From a virus: a stretch of DNA of 64,000 bases. The DNA lies in IMG/VR virus record IMGVR_UViG_3300010885_026736, positions 5,087 through 69,086 of that record; one strand, given 5' to 3'. The notes under the pieces were generated by a model. The model saw nothing but the letters and a program-made list of their open reading frames with translations. It had not been told where the DNA came from and did no database searches. Both the position numbers and the translations under genes were made by a program. The first letter of the stretch is position 1; every line of letters begins with the position of its first letter. This document shows, piece after piece, positions 3,715 through 50,343 of the stretch.

Positions 3715-4122
3715 TTATTCTCCCAGGAATTGCTTGATGGAACCAAAGGGAAGACCCCAGTTGTACTCGACTTCTTCGTAACCGTAGAAGCTAACACCCT
3801 CCTCCCAACCATCGGCTTGGATGAGGATACGAACAGCATCCTTCTTGGATGCATTGACCACCAGTGCCTGCATGTCGGCAACCCGCTTCTCAAAGCGGGC
3901 AACAGCTTCCTTCTGAGCTGCACGCTCCTCAGAAATCTCCCGGTCGATAGTACGCTGGAGGTAGTCGATCTGGCTATCAAAAGCCTCGACCGAACCAAAG
4001 AGGATAGGACTCTGGGGGCGAACGCCAGTGGCGTCCTTGTACATGTCAGAGTAGACCAGGCAGGCGTCGGCGCGCTCGGCCGAAGTAGCAGCGATCTGGG
4101 CGAGGGTCATGAAAGCAGTCAT
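3715..4122 (-). CDS. early hypothetical protein
   Basis: Follows an early promoter cassette; YSDMYKDATGVRP motif recurrent in T4-like early proteins; GC-richer codons. Confidence 0.7.
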   Translation of the reverse strand: MTAFMTLAQIAATSAERADACLVYSDMYKDATGVRPQSPILFGSVEAFDSQIDYLQRTIDREISEERAAQKEAVARFEKRVADMQALVVNASKKDAVRILIQADGWEEGVSFYGYEEVEYNWGLPFGSIKQFLGE

Positions 4123-4181
4123 TTGGGTTTCCTTCTTCGTTTCCATAATTAATAATAGCACAACTGGAATTAATTGCAACC
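4120..4181 (-). promoter_or_regulatory. early promoter/RBS cassette, copy 1
   Basis: TTGCAA-TTAATTCCA..-TGCTATTAT-TAATT-ATGGAAACGAAGAAGGAAACCCAAATG. Confidence 0.8.
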
Positions 4182-4185
4182 ATTT

Positions 4186-4398
4186 TTAAAAATTAATTCG
4201 TGGTTCTCCCAAGGTGTAATACGGCTCATAGTCCTCATCGTCATAGACCTCCCACTCAGCGGCATGCTGGTCTACATACTTCTTATGTTCAATAAGTTCA
4301 GACTCAGTCATATAGTCATATGACCATACTTCAGTTCCATCAGGGTATGCATACTTGAAGCCATTGTTCTCAATGCTCATGATAGCAATCTGGGTCAT
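4186..4398 (-). CDS. early hypothetical protein
   Basis: Follows cassette copy 2. Confidence 0.6.
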   Translation of the reverse strand: MTQIAIMSIENNGFKYAYPDGTEVWSYDYMTESELIEHKKYVDQHAAEWEVYDDEDYEPYYTLGEPRINF

Positions 4399-4457
4399 CG
4401 GTGTGTCCTGTCTCGTTTCCATAATTCATAATAGCATATATGGAATTAAACACAACC
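4396..4457 (-). promoter_or_regulatory. early promoter/RBS cassette, copy 2
   Basis: TTGTGT-TTAATTCCATATA-TGCTATTAT-GAATT-ATGGAAACGAGACAGGACACACCGATG. Confidence 0.8.
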
Positions 4458-4472
4458 GTTTTTTTAAGAAAA

Positions 4473-4661
4473 TTAAATTTCTACTCTCTTATAATAGAGA
4501 TGTAAAGGCCCCTTAGGCCCAAAGATGCACTTAGATATCTTAATGGCTTCTTCATAGTTTTCTGTGTGAAGCTTTAGCATGTGGATCTTTTCCGTACCTG
4601 GCGGAAAATGATAAGCGATCATATACTGATTCTTATACTTCTTGTCTGTTGATTTTTCCAT
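4473..4661 (-). CDS. hypothetical protein
   Basis: 62-aa ORF. Confidence 0.4.
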   Translation of the reverse strand: MEKSTDKKYKNQYMIAYHFPPGTEKIHMLKLHTENYEEAIKISKCIFGPKGPLHLYYKRVEI

Positions 4662-5337
4662 GTGTTAATCCATGATAGTCATAAAAAGTATTGATAACAG
4701 ATATCGCTTTGTCTATCCAGTCATCTCGTTTCTCAACAAAGACCTGAGGATAATCATTGTCTATAGCTATAATTATAACAATCTGTGGAACAGGAATACC
4801 TGTAAGCTCTTCAAACATCACAGCGTAGCAGGCACACTGCATGAAGTAATCTTCAATCCATTCACGCTTCTTAGGCTTGTTGGATGTCTTATAGTCAATG
4901 ATTGATCGTTTACCCTTGAACCGTGCAACTAAGTCAACAGTACCTGCAATACCTAGATGCTGTGAATACAAAGGAGTTTCAATTCCATGAACGTCATCAA
5001 TAGTCTCATCTAGGATGTCTACAATAGATGAGAATAGATCTAAGGTGCCTATGTCAAGGTTCTTGAAGTCAATAGGCTTATTACCCACATAGTCCTCGCA
5101 GACAGCATGGAGCTTAGTGCCTCTTGTAGAAGCCTTCTTTGAGATACGATTAGCTTCTTCTTCACCAACCTTTTCACGCCATGCCTTGAGAGAGTCCTTC
5201 TTGAAGAACCCTAAGACAGTGGTTACTGAGGGGACACGTTTCCCATCTGGTAGGACATAGAAACGTCCCCCCTCAGTATCTTCCCTATTAAGAGAATGCA
5301 GGTGTTTGAGGTTGTGGATAAACTGCTTTTGTATCAC
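4633..5337 (-). CDS. PD-(D/E)XK (Cas4/RecB-like) exonuclease
   Basis: PSVTTVL, RGT.LH, AGTVD, IIDYKTS and Q..CYA motifs; adjacent to phoH as in other T4-like phages. Confidence 0.85.
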   Translation of the reverse strand: MIQKQFIHNLKHLHSLNREDTEGGRFYVLPDGKRVPSVTTVLGFFKKDSLKAWREKVGEEEANRISKKASTRGTKLHAVCEDYVGNKPIDFKNLDIGTLDLFSSIVDILDETIDDVHGIETPLYSQHLGIAGTVDLVARFKGKRSIIDYKTSNKPKKREWIEDYFMQCACYAVMFEELTGIPVPQIVIIIAIDNDYPQVFVEKRDDWIDKAISVINTFYDYHGLTHGKINRQEV

Positions 5338-11874: not shown

Positions 11875-11967
11875 TGGTAGTCCCCGCTGGATTCGAACCA
11901 GCACTACTCGCTAATCTGGCGATGCGGCCTTATAAGGACCGTGTGCTAACCATTACACTAGAGGACT
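11875..11967 (-). tRNA. tRNA-Ile(UAU) with a long variable arm (93 nt)
   Basis: AGTCCTC/GGGGACT, CGGTC-CTTATAA-GGCCG, 22-nt variable region with TCGC/GCGA stem, CCA. Confidence 0.88.
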
Positions 11968-12660: not shown

Positions 12661-12789
12661 CTCCCTCTTACTAGAGATGCAAAATCATCCGGTTTCTGTT
12701 GTGGTGTTGAGGTTACTCGATCACCGCTTCTTAGCCAACTATGACTTTAAGCTTTGTAAGAGTCACGAAGATAAACAGATCTTCATGTG
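12573..12789 (-). ncRNA. candidate structured 5' leader RNA
   Basis: Several perfect or near-perfect stems (GAAGAT/ATCTTC, GATGATTTTG/CAGAATCATC, GAAGATC/GATCTTC, CATCTC/GAGATG) after the late promoter at 12790-12797. Confidence 0.5.
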
Positions 12790-17542: not shown

Positions 17543-17749
17543 CTACATCCTCGGCCGATGCTGTTCCCAGAGAGCGTCAACTTCGTTCTTGTAGCCAAGC
17601 TGACGGAGCTGGGTGCTCTCTAGCTCAATAGCAGACTTATCAGCGAAGCCACGGCGATTGACCCCTGGGTCATCAGAGTACACGTAGTACCAATCATGTT
17701 GCCTAAGACGAGTTTCAAGAGCCGCAAGGCGAGTTTCAACTTCGGTCAT
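17543..17749 (-). CDS. early hypothetical protein
   Basis: HDWYY.YSDD motif; follows a cassette copy. Confidence 0.65.
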   Translation of the reverse strand: MTEVETRLAALETRLRQHDWYYVYSDDPGVNRRGFADKSAIELESTQLRQLGYKNEVDALWEQHRPRM

Positions 17750-17808
17750 TTGACTTTCCTGTTTCGTTGTCATAATTCATAATAGCATAGCTGGAATTAA
17801 TGTCAAGC
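17747..17808 (-). promoter_or_regulatory. early promoter/RBS cassette copy
   Basis: TTGACA-TTAATTCCAGCTA-TGCTATTAT-GAATT-ATGACAACGAAACAGGAAAGTCAAATG. Confidence 0.8.
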
Positions 17809-19126: not shown

Positions 19127-19186
19127 TTGTGTTTCCTTTTTCATTTCCATAATTCATAATAGCATATATGGAATTAAACGCAACCG
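19124..19186 (-). promoter_or_regulatory. early promoter/RBS cassette copy
   Basis: TTGCGT-TTAATTCCATATA-TGCTATTAT-GAATT-ATGGAAATGAAAAAGGAAACACAAATG. Confidence 0.8.
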
Positions 19187-19187
19187 G

Positions 19188-19661
19188 TCACATGCGAAAT
19201 TTCAATGGTTTTAAAAACTTTGTATCCTTGGGATATTTCCAGTATTTAATGCCATTATTTCCAACAGGCTTATTGCTGGTCCCGCCGATTGGATTACGCA
19301 GAACACTCATAGGCAAATAATAGATATCACCATTAGTAGCATCAACAAATGCTAAGACAAGATCATATCCAAATTCCAATGAAAGATTAATATAATCAGT
19401 AACTGCATCACAATCAGCATTTAATGTATCAAAAGATTTATATTTTGTCTTAGCTTCAAAGAAATAATTCTTACCTTCATATTGAATTAAATAGTCCGGC
19501 AGACGTTTTCCATTATGCCTATACGTATCCTTTGAATAATATTCATGTGTTGATTGAATAGTATTAGATGTACCTTCAAATTTTCCCGTGTAATAAGCAT
19601 ACAAATATGCCTGGCCAACATCACCCTTTAACTTTGCAGATGAAGTTTCAAATTTATGCAT
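19188..19661 (-). CDS. putative PD-(D/E)XK endonuclease
   Basis: LPDY...FFEAKTK motif; AT-rich. Confidence 0.55.
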   Translation of the reverse strand: MHKFETSSAKLKGDVGQAYLYAYYTGKFEGTSNTIQSTHEYYSKDTYRHNGKRLPDYLIQYEGKNYFFEAKTKYKSFDTLNADCDAVTDYINLSLEFGYDLVLAFVDATNGDIYYLPMSVLRNPIGGTSNKPVGNNGIKYWKYPKDTKFLKPLKFRM

Positions 19662-45367: not shown

Positions 45368-45407
45368 AAAAAATTCTCCAGATTTCTATTATTTATATGA
45401 AAAAAAT

Positions 45408-46054: not shown

Positions 46055-46402
46055 ATGGGTACCAACTACTTCATTCACGAAACCAAGTGTAGTCATTGTG
46101 GTCACCAGCCTGAACTGGTTCACATTGGCAAGTCTAGTTCTGGTTGGAAGTTTGTCTTTCATGCTACTGACTTTTGCAAATCTCAGGGTGACTGGGAAGC
46201 TTGGCTGCTGAACTGCGCTATCATTGACGAGTATGGTCGGTTTCATACCCATCAAGAATTCTTTGATATGGTAGAACAGAAACAAGGTGGTCTCGACCAC
46301 ACGACTGCTCCTGATGATATCTGGGGTCCTTGGATTAGAGAAGATGGAATTCACTATCTGGATCCTGATGGATATTATTTTTGTCGGGGAGAATTTTGTT
46401 AA
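46055..46402 (+). CDS. conserved phage protein with CxxC
   Basis: MGTNY...CSHCG...HIGKSS.GW.F motif. Confidence 0.7.
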   Translation: MGTNYFIHETKCSHCGHQPELVHIGKSSSGWKFVFHATDFCKSQGDWEAWLLNCAIIDEYGRFHTHQEFFDMVEQKQGGLDHTTAPDDIWGPWIREDGIHYLDPDGYYFCRGEFC

Positions 46403-46740
46403 TGTTTGAAGAATTTGATAATTCTAATAAAGCTTCCTGGGGTCCTCTTGCAGGTATGCCAAAAGAAGAATTGCAAGCTTTGATTAAGCAAGGTAAGACT
46501 AAGGATCGTCTTAAGTCCTATTCTAAGCAAAAATATTATAAAGTCACTCCTGTGCGAGTGTTCACCTTTGAGCAAGTTGGCGAGACTTTTACCGTTCCAG
46601 CCTCCAGCCAAAGCTTGCTAGAATATAATATTGGCTGGGACATCCGATATCAAAATGTCCGAGATGCAATTATTGAGGATCCTGACTTTTCTACTCTGGA
46701 GCCAAAAATTTCTAAGCGATATAAAATCGTACCAGCTTAA
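46402..46740 (+). CDS. hypothetical protein
   Basis: TAATG coupling; GGAG SD. Confidence 0.55.
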   Translation: MFEEFDNSNKASWGPLAGMPKEELQALIKQGKTKDRLKSYSKQKYYKVTPVRVFTFEQVGETFTVPASSQSLLEYNIGWDIRYQNVRDAIIEDPDFSTLEPKISKRYKIVPA

Positions 46741-46745
46741 AAAAA

Positions 46746-46808
46746 TGGTTGCGTTTAATTCCATATATGCTATTATTAATTATGGAAATGAAACAGGAAA
46801 CACAAATG
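46746..46808 (+). promoter_or_regulatory. early promoter/RBS cassette copy
   Basis: TTGCGT-TTAATTCCATATA-TGCTATTAT-TAATT-ATGGAAATGAAACAGGAAACACAAATG. Confidence 0.8.
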
Positions 46809-46964
46809 ACTCCGTTCACTTACACCTTCCAAACTTCTCAACCGCTCACTGATGAACAACTTGAATTTTTGAACTCCCATCTGTGTAATCTCCCCTTCCA
46901 GGATTATGACAATATGTCTGACGTTCCTGAATTTACGACTGATATTGAACTTGTGACGAATTAA
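46806..46964 (+). CDS. small acidic early protein
   Basis: Follows a cassette. Confidence 0.55.
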   Translation: MTPFTYTFQTSQPLTDEQLEFLNSHLCNLPFQDYDNMSDVPEFTTDIELVTN

Positions 46965-46965
46965 T

Positions 46966-47024
46966 GCTTGCATTTAATTCCACATGTGCTATTATGAATT
47001 ATGGAAATGAAAGGGAAACAAATG
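46966..47024 (+). promoter_or_regulatory. early promoter/RBS cassette copy
   Basis: TTGCAT-TTAATTCCACATG-TGCTATTAT-GAATT-ATGGAAATGAAAGGGAAACAAATG. Confidence 0.8.
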
Positions 47025-47252
47025 TTTGACGTTCGGCTTGGTGATCGGGTTCGTTGGGAATCTGCTGCTGGTACTATTCGCGGCACTCTTGTTGGTGCTA
47101 ATCTCGGTCCTAACGCTAAGAATGAGATGATCGTTTGGTACACCATTGAAATGCTCAATGGCCATAAGCATCGTCTCTGTGGTAATGACGATTACCTCAA
47201 GATGATGAAGTTCACGGTTATATTCCGTGATGGTGGTCTTGAAGCTGCCTAA
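47022..47252 (+). CDS. early SH3-like hypothetical protein
   Basis: GDRVRWESAAG.IRG; follows a cassette. Confidence 0.6.
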   Translation: MFDVRLGDRVRWESAAGTIRGTLVGANLGPNAKNEMIVWYTIEMLNGHKHRLCGNDDYLKMMKFTVIFRDGGLEAA

Positions 47253-47272
47253 ATATCTTTTTGGAGGTGAAT

Positions 47273-47455
47273 ATGCTACAAGTTAGACAATACACATTTC
47301 CAACATACAAGCAAGGATTTTCTGCAGTTGAAAAATACAGAAATGAATTGCTGCAGAGATACCGATCAGGTCAGAGGCTCGACTGGGAAGAGCTTGATTG
47401 GCTAGACTGGGCTGAATTGACACTTCTAAAGAGGTCACATAGCTCAGCTGGATAG
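47273..47455 (+). CDS. hypothetical protein
   Basis: GGAGG SD; stop codon lies within the tRNA remnant. Confidence 0.5.
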   Translation: MLQVRQYTFPTYKQGFSAVEKYRNELLQRYRSGQRLDWEELDWLDWAELTLLKRSHSSAG

Positions 47456-47468
47456 AGCACCTGCCTTC
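47433..47468 (+). pseudogene. 5' half of a tRNA-Arg truncated in the anticodon
   Basis: GGTCACA-TA-GCTC-AGCTGGATA-GAGC-A-CCTGC-CT-TC, then non-tRNA sequence; the GGATA D-loop (A20) is an Arg identity element. Confidence 0.75.
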
Positions 47469-47469
47469 G

Positions 47470-47477
47470 TATAAATA
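47470..47477 (+). promoter_or_regulatory. late promoter TATAAATA inside an SD-sequestering hairpin
   Basis: TTCGTAT-AAATA-ATACGAA inverted repeat, extended by GCACCT/AGGTGT. Confidence 0.75.
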
Positions 47478-47496
47478 ATACGAATGGAGGTGTCAA

Positions 47497-48024
47497 ATGG
47501 CTTGGACAAAAGAATCAAGAGAAAAGGCTTTAGAAGCCAAAAGAAAAACTGGTATAAAGAATCAGTATTCTAAGGGCGCTGTAATATCTGATGATACTAA
47601 AAATAAACTTAGAGTTTCAGGCTTAGGAAGAAAGCATACACAAGAAACAAAAGACAAATTGAGTGAAAAGGGATTAGCATCCGATCATAGACGCCTATGC
47701 AGATCTATTCGACCATACACAAAAAAAGATGGTAGTATAGTTAATCTAGATTCTTCTTGGGAAGAAGCCTTAGCTATAAGATTGGATATGTTAAACATTG
47801 AATGGATTAGACCTACTCCTATTAAATGGATAGATAGTAAAGGTAAATCAAGAAATTATTTTCCTGATTTCTATCTACCTAAATTTGAATTATTCTTAGA
47901 TCCTAAAAATCCAATAGCAATGAAACAACAACATGAAAAAGTATCTTGGCTAAAATCTAATGTAAAAAATCTTATTTTTTTAGAATCTTTGGAAGAAATA
48001 GAACAATATATCCCGATAGTTTAA
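47497..48024 (+). CDS. putative homing endonuclease (NUMOD3 + PD-(D/E)XK/TnsA-N-like)
   Basis: GRKHTQETKDKLS; DSSWE; YFPDFYL....FLDPK; AT-rich. Confidence 0.75.
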   Translation: MAWTKESREKALEAKRKTGIKNQYSKGAVISDDTKNKLRVSGLGRKHTQETKDKLSEKGLASDHRRLCRSIRPYTKKDGSIVNLDSSWEEALAIRLDMLNIEWIRPTPIKWIDSKGKSRNYFPDFYLPKFELFLDPKNPIAMKQQHEKVSWLKSNVKNLIFLESLEEIEQYIPIV

Positions 48025-48084
48025 TGGATAAAACCGAAGTTTTCTAAACTTCTAATGAAAGTTCGATTCTTTCTCGGGATGCCA
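48010..48084 (+). tRNA. tRNA-Arg(UCU)
   Basis: ATCCCGA/TCGGGAT, GAAGT-TTTCTAA-ACTTC, GAAAG-TTCGATT-CTTTC, G73, CCA. Confidence 0.88.
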
Positions 48085-48090
48085 AAATAT

Positions 48091-48166
48091 GGCCACTTAG
48101 CCCAGCGGCAGAGGCAAAGGTCTTAAAAACCTTCAAGGGTGAGTTCGAATCTCACAGTGGCTACCA
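48091..48166 (+). tRNA. tRNA-Leu(UAA) with a short variable loop
   Basis: GGCCACT/AGTGGCT, AAGGT-CTTAAAA-ACCTT, 5-nt variable loop, A73, CCA. Confidence 0.85.
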
Positions 48167-48186
48167 ACATACTTAAAGGATACAAC

Positions 48187-48372
48187 ATGATTTGGCTTTT
48201 GATTTACTACGTTTATAGTGCTGGTGCACAAATTCCTACTCAGCTTCCACATGAATATGGTTCTAAGGTTGAGTGTGAGAATGCCGCAAAAATTCTAGAT
48301 AAAAACAATCCTTACGTACATGTGGATGGTCCTCAACCACATATTTGCTTAGGTGTTTCTAAAACCCATTAA
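48187..48372 (+). CDS. small secreted/membrane hypothetical protein
   Basis: AAAGGA SD; hydrophobic N-terminus; ECE.AA...C. Confidence 0.5.
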   Translation: MIWLLIYYVYSAGAQIPTQLPHEYGSKVECENAAKILDKNNPYVHVDGPQPHICLGVSKTH

Positions 48373-48451
48373 CTTCATTAATATTTCATAAAAAATTAAC
48401 CCTTCTAAATCATTAATGAACTAAATAATGTCATCTGCCTAGGAGGCCACG

Positions 48452-49552
48452 ATGACAAAAATTTTGTTTATTCTAAAGTATAGAGAAAGTGACTATGGTG
48501 ACAATAGTTACTCAGATGAAAAGCAAACGTGGGCTTTCAAGAAAGGCCTTAGTAGCGGTCTACTAAACTCAGCAAAATTTGTAAATGATATGCTGAATAC
48601 TGTTGAGGGCTTTGAAAGCAAGCTAATACAGGTTGTAGATAACAACTGTATTGATAGAGAAGTTACTCAGTATAAGCCTGATATTGTTATTATTGAAGCC
48701 TACTGGGTTGTTCCAGAAAAGTTTGACATTCTAACTAAGCTTCATCCAAAGGTGAAGTGGATTATTCGTAACCATAGTAATACACCTTTCCTAGCCAATG
48801 AAGGTATTGCATTTGGTTGGAGTGTTGACTATCTTAATAATCATAATGTCTTTTTAAGCTGCAATCATATTAAAGCTCTAAAGGATATGCGTAAGCTTAT
48901 CAAAAAGGTTTATCCTAAAGCATCAGAAGATACTATTGATAGACGTATTCCTTATCTTCCAAATTATTATCCTCTAAAGCATGAGTATGATATTAAAAAA
49001 GAAACAAAGCACCCTGGCGTACTAAACGTTGGGTGTTTTGGTGCAATTCGTCCACTAAAGAATCAAATGATCCAAGCTCTAGCAGCTATTGAATACGCAC
49101 ACCTTACCAAGAAGCATTTGAAGTTTCATATCAATGGGAACAGAATCGAAGGTAATGGCGGACCTATTCTAAAGAACCTTCGTGACTTGTTTGCAAGAAC
49201 ACCAAATGCTGAACTAGTAGAACACACTTGGTTGCCACATGATCAATTTCATCAGCTAATATCTAAAATGGATATTGGTCTTCAGGTAAGTTTCTCTGAA
49301 ACATTTAATATTGTAGCTGCTGACTTTGCAGTGAATGATGTACCTGTAGTGACATGCAAGGAAATTGATTGGTCTAATAAGTACCTACATGCTGATCCTA
49401 CTGACTGTGATAGTATTGTACAAGCCATGTTCAGAGCGCAATACTTACAGAAGTTCACACAATGCTATAAGCCACATATTTGGGGCTTATCAAATTATAA
49501 TAAGAAAAGTAAGAAGCAGTGGATTAGAGTGATACGTTCACTTCATAGATAA
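48452..49552 (+). CDS. GT-B glycosyltransferase-like protein
   Basis: VGCFGAIRPLKNQ and MDIGLQVSFSETFNIV.AD (E-x7-D); GGAGG SD. Confidence 0.75.
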   Translation: MTKILFILKYRESDYGDNSYSDEKQTWAFKKGLSSGLLNSAKFVNDMLNTVEGFESKLIQVVDNNCIDREVTQYKPDIVIIEAYWVVPEKFDILTKLHPKVKWIIRNHSNTPFLANEGIAFGWSVDYLNNHNVFLSCNHIKALKDMRKLIKKVYPKASEDTIDRRIPYLPNYYPLKHEYDIKKETKHPGVLNVGCFGAIRPLKNQMIQALAAIEYAHLTKKHLKFHINGNRIEGNGGPILKNLRDLFARTPNAELVEHTWLPHDQFHQLISKMDIGLQVSFSETFNIVAADFAVNDVPVVTCKEIDWSNKYLHADPTDCDSIVQAMFRAQYLQKFTQCYKPHIWGLSNYNKKSKKQWIRVIRSLHR

Positions 49553-49554
49553 TG

Positions 49555-49580
49555 AAAAGGGGGCTTTCGCCCCCTTTTTT
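49555..49580. terminator. bidirectional intrinsic terminator
   Basis: AAAAGGGGGC-TTTC-GCCCCCTTTTTT between convergent genes. Confidence 0.85.
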
Positions 49581-50343
49581 ATTTCCTTACTGTCCAAGCA
49601 TCTGATCCAAATGCAGGATTTTCTATATACTCTGCTGGGATCCAGAAGTGTCCATGATCTCCCCAAGAGGTCCCCCATGAATTGCGAACTTCATAGTAGC
49701 ACTGTCCTGGGCAAAACATGTTTGTTTTATATTTTTCATCATAGCCAATAACAGTTACAGCATGACCACCTAAGCATCTTTCTGATGACCCAGGCATAGG
49801 TACTACACCTGAGTTTGACACTTCTTGAGACTCAAAGCTATCATAGATTTGAATACCAATGATGAATGGGAATCCATCAGCAAGACACTGCTTGTATTCT
49901 TGACCATTGCTTAGACGAGAATATTCTACAATCTTGTTTTGTGCAGCTTCGTCAATTTCTATTTGAGGAGGTGCTTCTTTAAACTTTGAAATATCATATG
50001 GCCAATCTTTTTCAAGTCCAACACCTTGCTTGTTTAGGACTTGAATAGCATCACGTAAGTAAGCACCGCTGTCTTGATCAACAGTGCCTTCCATAAGCCT
50101 TTCCCAGTAGTAAAGAGCAAGACGAGAATATGGACCACCACCATGTTCATAAGTGAATACGGCAGTAGCAGCTTGAGCTGAACAACTACCTAGTTCACCT
50201 TGATCATATGGAGGTTCTTTAAACTTATCACGAAGGCTTACCTTTTCAGGCAATTCAATAGCGCCAGGAGCATGTACTGCATTGAATTTCCAATCTCTTG
50301 GATCTTCACGATCTCTTAAATATCCATATACTCGTCTTGTCAT
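49579..50343 (-). CDS. papain-like (C1A) cysteine peptidase
   Basis: DQGELGSC, GGHAV..IGY, VRNSWG..WG..G.F. Confidence 0.92.
   Translation of the reverse strand: MTRRVYGYLRDREDPRDWKFNAVHAPGAIELPEKVSLRDKFKEPPYDQGELGSCSAQAATAVFTYEHGGGPYSRLALYYWERLMEGTVDQDSGAYLRDAIQVLNKQGVGLEKDWPYDISKFKEAPPQIEIDEAAQNKIVEYSRLSNGQEYKQCLADGFPFIIGIQIYDSFESQEVSNSGVVPMPGSSERCLGGHAVTVIGYDEKYKTNMFCPGQCYYEVRNSWGTSWGDHGHFWIPAEYIENPAFGSDAWTVRK

Follow-up and report, generated by a model that had tools for sequence, protein, structure and literature searches.

A nuclease cassette that probably entered a phage tRNA-Arg gene at its anticodon and brought a replacement tRNA

We analysed a 64,000-nucleotide stretch of viral DNA (hereafter the window; positions 5,087 to 69,086 of IMG/VR record IMGVR_UViG_3300010885_026736), which is part of a 69-kb record with an estimated completeness of about 39%. 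In this window a tRNA-Arg(UCU) gene stops inside its anticodon, and a promoter-like box, the gene for a 175-amino-acid nuclease and a second, complete tRNA-Arg(UCU) gene follow at once. We propose that the locus records the arrival of a free-standing, intron-less homing-endonuclease cassette, which invaded the resident tRNA-Arg(UCU) gene at its anticodon in an ancestor resembling the cassette-free viral contig L002; we hold this reading to be probable, at roughly 0.75. The window has T4-like traits, in that the T4-type late-promoter-like box TATAAATA is enriched in it (13 copies versus 5.4 expected) and tail-tube and virion-protein families are encoded nearby.

The broken tRNA gene and its intact counterpart

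When viral contigs were scanned with the half tRNA as an exact pattern, one contig other than the window was found, L002. L002 and the window are collinear over more than 12 kb (83-93% identical), and at the same site L002 carries an intact 77-nt tRNA-Arg(UCU) gene followed after 4 nt by an 85-nt tRNA-Leu(UAA) gene. An intact tRNA-Arg gene in a cassette-free relative had been anticipated by an initial annotation made from the sequence of the window, and L002 possesses it together with the anticodon arm predicted there (...CCTGCCTTCTAAGCAGG...). Alignment with blastn paired L002 12143-12646 with window positions 46965-47468 and L002 12777-12873 with 48171-48267; homology breaks exactly after anticodon base C35 (47468) and restarts at 48171, past the second tRNA gene of the tract. 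Relative to L002 the window has lost 130 bp, comprising the 3′ half of tRNA-Arg, the spacer and the whole of tRNA-Leu, and a foreign tract stands in their place (Table 1). The nuclease gene, present in the window and absent at the same site of L002, constitutes a presence/absence polymorphism. A half tRNA cannot be ancestral, and the window allele therefore derives from an L002-like allele.

The broken gene contains the acceptor strand, the D arm, the 5′ strand of the anticodon stem and the loop letters C-T-T-C, and then stops, just as the initial annotation had described. In the Rfam scan this half (47433-47468) fell below detection, with no match at E ≤ 1; we identify it as a tRNA half because the intact L002 gene matches it. 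The corresponding 41-nt 3′ half of the L002 tRNA-Arg has no match with three or fewer mismatches anywhere in the window, and no complement of the dead half's acceptor strand follows the open reading frame (ORF) of the nuclease, which bears out the earlier statement that the missing part is not found there. A small resident ORF that terminates inside the tRNA is present in L002 and in a third relative, L131, as well as in the window.

The 702-bp tract contains the nuclease ORF and two tRNA genes only, and an integrase gene is absent from it. G+C content is 0.26-0.30 at 47700-48100 versus 0.39 in the whole window. The box and the ORF were found directly behind the broken half, and the last codons of the ORF (I-P-I-V-stop) are also the first 15 nt of the new tRNA-Arg gene (48010-48024, stop codon included), an overlap that stands exactly as it was first noticed. 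ARAGORN calls cloverleaves for both new tRNAs, and their Rfam RF00005 scores (Table 1) compare with a gathering threshold of 29, both methods thus recognising the complete, AT-rich tRNA-Arg(UCU) claimed after the ORF. The span first outlined, 47433-48084, holds each of these elements at its position but ends too early: the tract runs to 48170 and includes a second tRNA. Both tRNA genes beside the nuclease gene differ from those of L002, the single cassette-free relative. The new tRNA-Arg is unrelated in sequence to the resident one, and the word 'isoacceptor', initially applied to it, has to be dropped, since its anticodon is the same UCU as in the old gene, making it a replacement copy. AGA accounts for 187 of the 644 arginine codons in 50 long ORFs.

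Within the nuclease gene itself (47497-48021), nine of 11 arginine codons are AGA and eight of 17 leucine codons are TTA, the codons read by the two travelling tRNAs. The 76-nt cassette tRNA-Leu(UAA) is without a long variable arm, and its L002 counterpart (12692-12776) is a normal 85-nt gene. Genes of 75-78 nt for tRNA-Leu(taa/caa) recur in the loci of the nuclease family described below, and Streptomyces phage Wakanda has a 74-nt counterpart that is 78.5% alike to the cassette tRNA-Leu(UAA).

Table 1. Features of the interrupted tRNA-Arg locus, in window coordinates
Feature	Position	Strand	Basis or remark
Resident small ORF, 60 aa from ATG	47273..47455	+	ORF list; last 23 nt overlap the tRNA 5′ half
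Dead 5′ half of resident tRNA-Arg(UCU), positions 1-35, ending after anticodon base C35	47433..47468	+	36/36 identity to L002
Hairpin in which the end of the dead half pairs with the Shine-Dalgarno region	47457..47493	+	Fold versus shuffles; putative regulatory role
Foreign tract, 702 bp	47469..48170	+	blastn; stands for 130 bp of the L002-type allele
TATAAATA, late-promoter-like box of T4 type, left end of tract	47470..47477	+	Putative promoter
Nuclease gene, 175 aa	47497..48024	+	ORF list, PHROG, structure model
Complete AT-rich replacement tRNA-Arg(UCU)	48010..48084	+	ARAGORN; Rfam 63.5 bits
Second tRNA of the tract, 76 nt, anticodon UAA (Leu)	48091..48166	+	ARAGORN; Rfam 56.3 bits
Right flank, where homology to the cassette-free relative resumes	48171..48267	+	89.7% identity over 97 nt to L002 12777-12873

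A nuclease family of phage tRNA arrays

The N-terminal part of the 175-residue protein is helical and includes a NUMOD3-like stretch, and the C-terminal domain (residues about 66-175) has a PD-(D/E)XK fold. An AlphaFold model made with 32 aligned homologs reached a predicted local distance difference test (pLDDT) value of 87. When the C-terminal domain was compared all-against-representatives, the structure search returned TnsA (Z 8.6, root-mean-square deviation 3.1, 102 residues aligned; a Z near 8 is rated only moderate by the tool), VRR-NUC (7.5), Vsr (7.1), Bax1 (6.3), I-Bth0305I (5.5), Hjc (5.0) and I-Ssp6803I (4.8). Foldseek gave TnsA a probability of 1.00 but an E value of 0.012, and against the PDB it found nothing at E ≤ 0.001 for the nuclease model; a profile search of PDB sequences with the nuclease family gave 0 matches at E ≤ 1. 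A PHROG family annotated 'endonuclease' matched at 6.3e-08. E89, D124, D135 and K137 (D135-P-K137) are invariant in all 32 aligned members, and the order of the motif marks them as putative active-site residues. Of the initial description of this ORF as NUMOD3/PD-(D/E)XK, the fold holds by structure search, whereas the NUMOD3 match is only weak; a precomputed match to NUMOD3 (PF07460) is recorded for five of the 120 nuclease homologs listed.

At E ≤ 0.001 the family comprises 253 proteins in a large protein collection; among the 120 relatives listed, most are 50-70% identical and almost all are unnamed. Genomic settings were compared in 80 metagenome loci, less L050 (which is the window's own sequence), plus L003 and the window; they made up 62 clusters when the nuclease genes were grouped at 95% nucleotide identity. 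The family sits almost only in phage tRNA arrays. A tRNA-Arg(UCU) gene, canonical or odd, directly adjoins the nuclease gene in 55 of the 62 clusters, in categories that overlap: a canonical gene ends no more than 70 nt before the ATG (typically about 16 nt) in 32 clusters and starts at the ORF end, as in the window, in eight, while an odd tRNA-Arg(UCU)-like gene lies upstream in ten and downstream in six. Fusion of the new tRNA to the ORF end, which the initial annotation had made part of the element, is therefore true of the window, but many relatives have their spare tRNA-Arg upstream and unfused. A TATAAATA-like box stands no more than 330 nt upstream in 53 clusters.

Broken tRNA halves were sought with a structural detector anchored on the TATAAATA-like box. 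Its strict criteria were U8, A14, a D stem that pairs, a D loop containing GG or GA, and a stem strand of 5 nt followed by Y-T. The detector took the place of a hidden Markov model of tRNA 5′ and 3′ halves, which had recovered too few AT-rich halves. A strict 5′ half ending in the anticodon loop lies 0-26 nt before the box in 28 of the 62 clusters. With randomly placed anchors the detector was positive for 261 of 4050 in these loci and for 294 of 5000 in the window (about 6%). Across the family the halves break after position 33, 34 or, most often, 35 (the letters after U33). Broken 5′ half, TATAAATA box and complete tRNA-Arg(UCU), the flanks that the initial annotation had proposed to look for beside homologous ORFs, do recur.

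These counts also bear on a more ordinary origin, in which the tract would have arisen by illegitimate or tRNA-array recombination and the nuclease would serve phage exclusion, DNA repair or junction resolution and not homing. Resolvases and repair nucleases are indeed among the fold matches given above (Vsr, Hjc and VRR-NUC), one PHROG match is annotated 'Holliday junction resolvase', tRNA arrays near the locus vary widely among relatives, and pattern scans of viral contigs found no donor. Recombination of this kind fails, however, to explain why the same break, within 2-3 nt of the anticodon loop, stands beside the same box in 28 of 62 clusters against 6% in the control, and it likewise fails to explain why the neighbour in 55 clusters is specifically a tRNA-Arg(UCU). 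We regard it as unlikely, and favour invasion by a homing cassette.

ARAGORN called no tRNA in ten viral contigs with ORF homologs (L003-L012); L003 has a broken half and an odd tRNA that ARAGORN missed, and the other nine share the NUMOD3-like part only. A protein search of deposited phages returned six records, none with the same architecture. The best of these matches, in Aeromonas phage phiWae14 (50% identity over 59% of the query), lies beside tRNA-Leu genes on the other strand.

The odd genes deserve a description of their own. At no fewer than 14 loci the nuclease gene adjoins a gene that resembles tRNA-Arg(UCU) but lacks a normal D arm and is missed by ARAGORN (L003 2563-2646, L063 1638-1721, L085 1658-1741, L098, L104 and L115; L100 1469-1549, L121, L123, L114, L127, L058, L084, L122 and L113). 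For one subclass RNAalifold gives an acceptor stem and a T arm, plus a helix of 6 bp that stacks directly on the anticodon stem; both sides have changed in 10 of its 23 pairs. Covariation is seen in 14 of 17 pairs of the other subclass. The D-arm-less genes have the appearance of functional, non-canonical tRNAs. In L092 (2542-2628) and L094 (2563-2649), neither of which has an adjacent tRNA-Arg, ARAGORN reports directly behind the nuclease gene an 87-nt 'tRNA-Ser(act)', which may be another odd tRNA with a misread anticodon.

Insertion scars, the ends of the unit and a proposed route

Remnants of the old tRNA are found on the far side of the insert in a third of the informative relatives. Of the clusters with a strict half, 27 extend far enough downstream for comparison, and in nine of these the acceptor strand of the half finds its exact complement, followed by NCCA, at or just after the ORF end; with shuffled acceptors the figure was 175 of 5400. 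In L055 the upstream piece corresponds to positions 1-34 of the intact tRNA-Arg(UCU) of L111, and the piece behind the ORF to positions of about 36-76. L093 and L072 repeat the arrangement of the window, with half, box, ORF and complete tRNA-Arg in succession, and behind the new tRNA they retain a short 3′ remnant of the old one. The retained 3′ pieces vary from nearly whole, through the T arm only, to nothing, as in the window, a graded loss of the kind seen in decaying scars rather than in exons.

The nine clusters in which both halves flank the insert would also suit an account in which the insert is a present or recent intron and the halves are its exons, the insert leaving at the RNA level through a degenerate group I ribozyme or through cleavage followed by ligation. 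True group I introns do occur in the same arrays, in the anticodon loops of tRNA-Leu(UAA) in L072 and L075, and the nuclease fold weakly resembles tRNA-splicing endonucleases (Z 4.0-5.0). The window, however, has no 3′ exon, and a group I intron at the locus was rejected on the Rfam result: between 46500 and 49000 neither a group I intron nor any other intron matched at E ≤ 1. Among 18 relatives scanned at E ≤ 0.01, group I introns were matched only twice, both times in tRNA genes elsewhere in the arrays and never around the nuclease gene. Moreover, the inserts hold a putative promoter and often a whole tRNA, and the retained 3′ pieces range in size as decaying remnants would. We consider an intron highly improbable here. 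The two RF00028 introns lie at L072 215-465 (59.6 bits) and L075 825-1022 (53.3 bits), the latter splitting the anticodon loop of a class-II tRNA-Leu(UAA) as CTT / intron / AAAA.

The right end of the proposed homing cassette was approached through tRNA sequence at the end of the ORF. A tRNA 5′ portion starts between 40 nt before and 12 nt after the ORF end in 23 of 61 clusters (control, 558 of 4050), with offsets of -14, -22 and -9 recurring. In L057, where the 5′ half of the resident tRNA is located upstream of the nuclease gene, the ORF is followed by a chimera: its 5′ part, fused to the ORF end, is of cassette type and homologous to the 5′ part of the window's new tRNA-Arg, its 3′ part is of resident type, and the two are joined at the anticodon region. 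This arrangement fits a unit consisting of box, nuclease gene and tRNA 5′ part, which would enter at the anticodon. A chimera with mismatched acceptor strands would need a separate complete tRNA-Arg in the cassette, as in the common upstream arrangement; in the window the whole new tRNA is of cassette type and its acceptor strands pair.

At the left end the window reads C35, G, TATAAATA, and this junction recurs in L059, L071, L075 and L091, each time with a different tRNA half. A Shine-Dalgarno sequence, GGAGG (47486-47490), lies between TATAAATA and the nuclease ORF, and the hairpin listed in Table 1 holds the box in its top (-25.1 kcal/mol, z -3.67; 0 of 200 shuffles were as stable). A similar hairpin of different sequence is seen in L054 at about 1778-1845, where the broken half pairs with the ribosome-binding region across TATAAATA (about 17 pairs with one mismatch, paired by hand). 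The sequence following the promoter was also considered as a mutated 3′ strand of the anticodon stem; this was rejected, as it fits the equivalent cassette sequence of L054 better.

In the route that we propose for the invasion, the nuclease would make a double-strand break in or near the anticodon-loop DNA of a cassette-free tRNA-Arg(UCU) gene during mixed infection, and repair of the break would copy the cassette from the donor phage. The 5′ half of the old tRNA would provide the homology arm on the left and the ORF-fused tRNA sequence that on the right. The cassette brings a whole tRNA-Arg, and AGA decoding would therefore be kept and splicing be unnecessary. Expression of the nuclease is probably late, from TATAAATA, and read-through transcripts are probably silenced by the hairpin, which would bury the ribosome-binding site.

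A number of observations weigh against invasion by this route. The position of the break could be a scar of insertion or repair instead of the cut site. There is one informative cassette-free relative: in L131 the tRNA begins at the same point and the contig ends inside it, and the tRNA-Leu may have been swapped either together with the cassette or separately. L131 was the sole further close contig reached in a search with the upstream 83-aa protein; 35 loci reached through the downstream glycosyltransferase were too distant or without the tRNA pair, and near and distant DNA searches with 46400-49600 against deposited phages gave either nothing or tRNA-level matches plus one at the level of a glycosyltransferase. 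As for a donor, exact-pattern scans of viral contigs with both new tRNAs gave 0 matches, neither cassette tRNA has a close relative among the fetched loci, and the closest nuclease homologs are only about 60-70% identical. The match to Pfam NUMOD3 (residues 44-57, E 0.0067) scores 16.8 bits, below the cut-off of 20.4. The strict detector is positive in fewer than half of the clusters, with further halves visible by eye beyond that count. As regards the resistance to cutting predicted for the new tRNA, its loop, TTTCTAA, shares TTCTAA with the loop of the destroyed gene, CTTCTAA. Finally, L072 reverses the pattern of the window, its broken half being AT-rich and its new tRNA GC-rich.

Known systems, wider occurrence and flanking differences

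The nearest comparison is with phage T4. SegB is described, in the accessible text of PMC2330249, as a free-standing GIY-YIG homing endonuclease of the T4 tRNA gene cluster that has a NUMOD3 motif, targets tRNA genes and spreads together with neighbouring tRNA genes, with loss of the rival phage's markers; it recognises a T-psi-C stem-loop motif and cuts at tRNA 3′ ends. The window likewise has a free-standing nuclease gene with a NUMOD3-like stretch inside a phage tRNA cluster, and the gene order is the same, T4 segB (L136 874-1619, minus strand) ending 5 nt before the T4 tRNA-Arg(UCU). The proteins are nevertheless different: the GIY-YIG domain of SegB is N-terminal, whereas the window protein has its PD-(D/E)XK fold at the C-terminus and gave no GIY-YIG match in a Pfam scan at E ≤ 1, and the two align over a 24-residue NUMOD3-like stretch only (E 0.015). 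A classification of the window protein as a Seg protein was rejected on this basis. The scars of the window lie in the anticodon loop, in contrast to the cutting at tRNA 3′ ends described for SegB in that text, and T4, unlike the window, has no broken tRNA half upstream of segB.

The left junction has T4 parallels as well. In the same accessible text (PMC2330249), a hairpin over the ribosome-binding site is proposed to limit SegB expression, and I-TevI, I-TevII, I-TevIII and MobE are described with a late promoter in or beside a hairpin that hides the ribosome-binding site, such that only late transcripts are translated. The hairpin of the window, with GGAGG buried and TATAAATA in its top, resembles these and may regulate the nuclease in the same way; its 5′ arm differs from that of the T4 intron endonucleases in being a dead tRNA half.

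SegB also bears on a reading in which the locus is mainly an anti-defence module: the spare tRNA-Arg and tRNA-Leu would replace tRNAs of host or phage cleaved by anticodon nucleases, and the nuclease would act on RNA or amplify the locus, as is reported for SegB. The accessible part of a 2026 paper (PMC13096335) reports SegB-driven amplification of anti-defence tRNA loci, the cassette tRNAs are strongly different from the resident ones, and many relatives have tRNA-Arg(UCU) genes of non-canonical shape. The repeated anticodon break of the resident tRNA gene is left unexplained by such a module, however, and the analysed data gave no evidence of RNA cleavage. Anti-defence is compatible with homing and does not exclude it; as the main function of the locus we judge it improbable.

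Integrative elements that target tRNA genes bring with them a copy of the tRNA end that they displace; they enter by means of an integrase, usually at the 3′ end. The invader in the window would resemble them in mending its own damage with tRNA sequence, and a partial tRNA duplicate likewise marks one of its borders. Such elements rebuild the very gene that they enter through sequence identity, whereas the window has its break in the anticodon and a different, whole tRNA in compensation. The homing endonuclease I-Ssp6803I is encoded in a group I intron in the anticodon loop of tRNA-fMet, and it cuts the intron-less tRNA gene. In that system the enzyme is intron-encoded and the tRNA is restored by splicing, whereas the window has neither ribozyme nor 3′ exon and uses a second gene copy. 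Both enzymes have a PD-(D/E)XK core (Z 4.8 to PDB 2ost), I-Ssp6803I being cyanobacterial (PMC3384342, accessible text), but no sequence similarity between them is detectable in the PDB profile search at E ≤ 1. What would be new relative to SegB and I-Ssp6803I is the anticodon break combined with a spare tRNA; cleavage, homing and immunity are predicted here from sequence.

Homing endonucleases are thought to persist in essential genes by means of introns or inteins, or else to persist between genes. A cassette of the kind proposed would open a third route, in which the gene is broken and a spare is brought along, and the open-access literature yielded no description of nuclease cassettes that break a tRNA anticodon and supply such a spare. 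Tentatively, it is possible that the window represents a widespread, undescribed class of intron-less tRNA-gene invaders that reuse the broken half, turn over tRNAs and give rise to odd ones. In members of the class the nuclease gene would have tRNA sequence fused to it at the 3′ end and a late promoter at the 5′ end. On insertion at the anticodon of a phage tRNA-Arg(UCU) gene, the tRNA would be regenerated or replaced through duplication, with no part for splicing. The leftover 5′ half would serve again, both as a homology arm and as the silencing arm of the hairpin. Repeated invasions would drive fast turnover of tRNA-Arg, including tRNA-Arg shapes without a normal D arm, and these non-canonical shapes would possibly be favoured through escape from the nuclease.

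Should the proposed mechanism be correct, it would explain the mosaic structure of phage tRNA arrays and the dead tRNA halves scattered in them. It would also define a family of compact (175 aa) nucleases that probably recognise conserved tRNA-gene sequence, and provide a natural system for studying the co-evolution of a selfish element with the gene that it replaces, including the odd shapes of neighbouring tRNAs. In practice, tRNA finders overlook both dead halves and odd tRNAs, so that phage tRNA sets are mis-counted.

Other differences between the window and L002 lie close to the locus. A 562-bp segment with two small ORFs (46403-46964) is absent from L002 and is bordered by a repeated intergenic element of 55-80 nt, of which the window has several copies (near 45402, 46741 and 46963, and on the minus strand near 4120-4476, 17738-17800 and 19130-19188). 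Downstream, L002 lacks 48268-48353, which is part of a small ORF at 48187-48372; the homology in L002 jumps there from 12873 to 12864, with overlap. Elsewhere in the window, 11875-11967 (minus strand) encodes a 93-nt tRNA with anticodon UAU (Ile), and tRNA-Ile(tat) genes of similar length (89-96 nt) are found repeatedly among the family loci.

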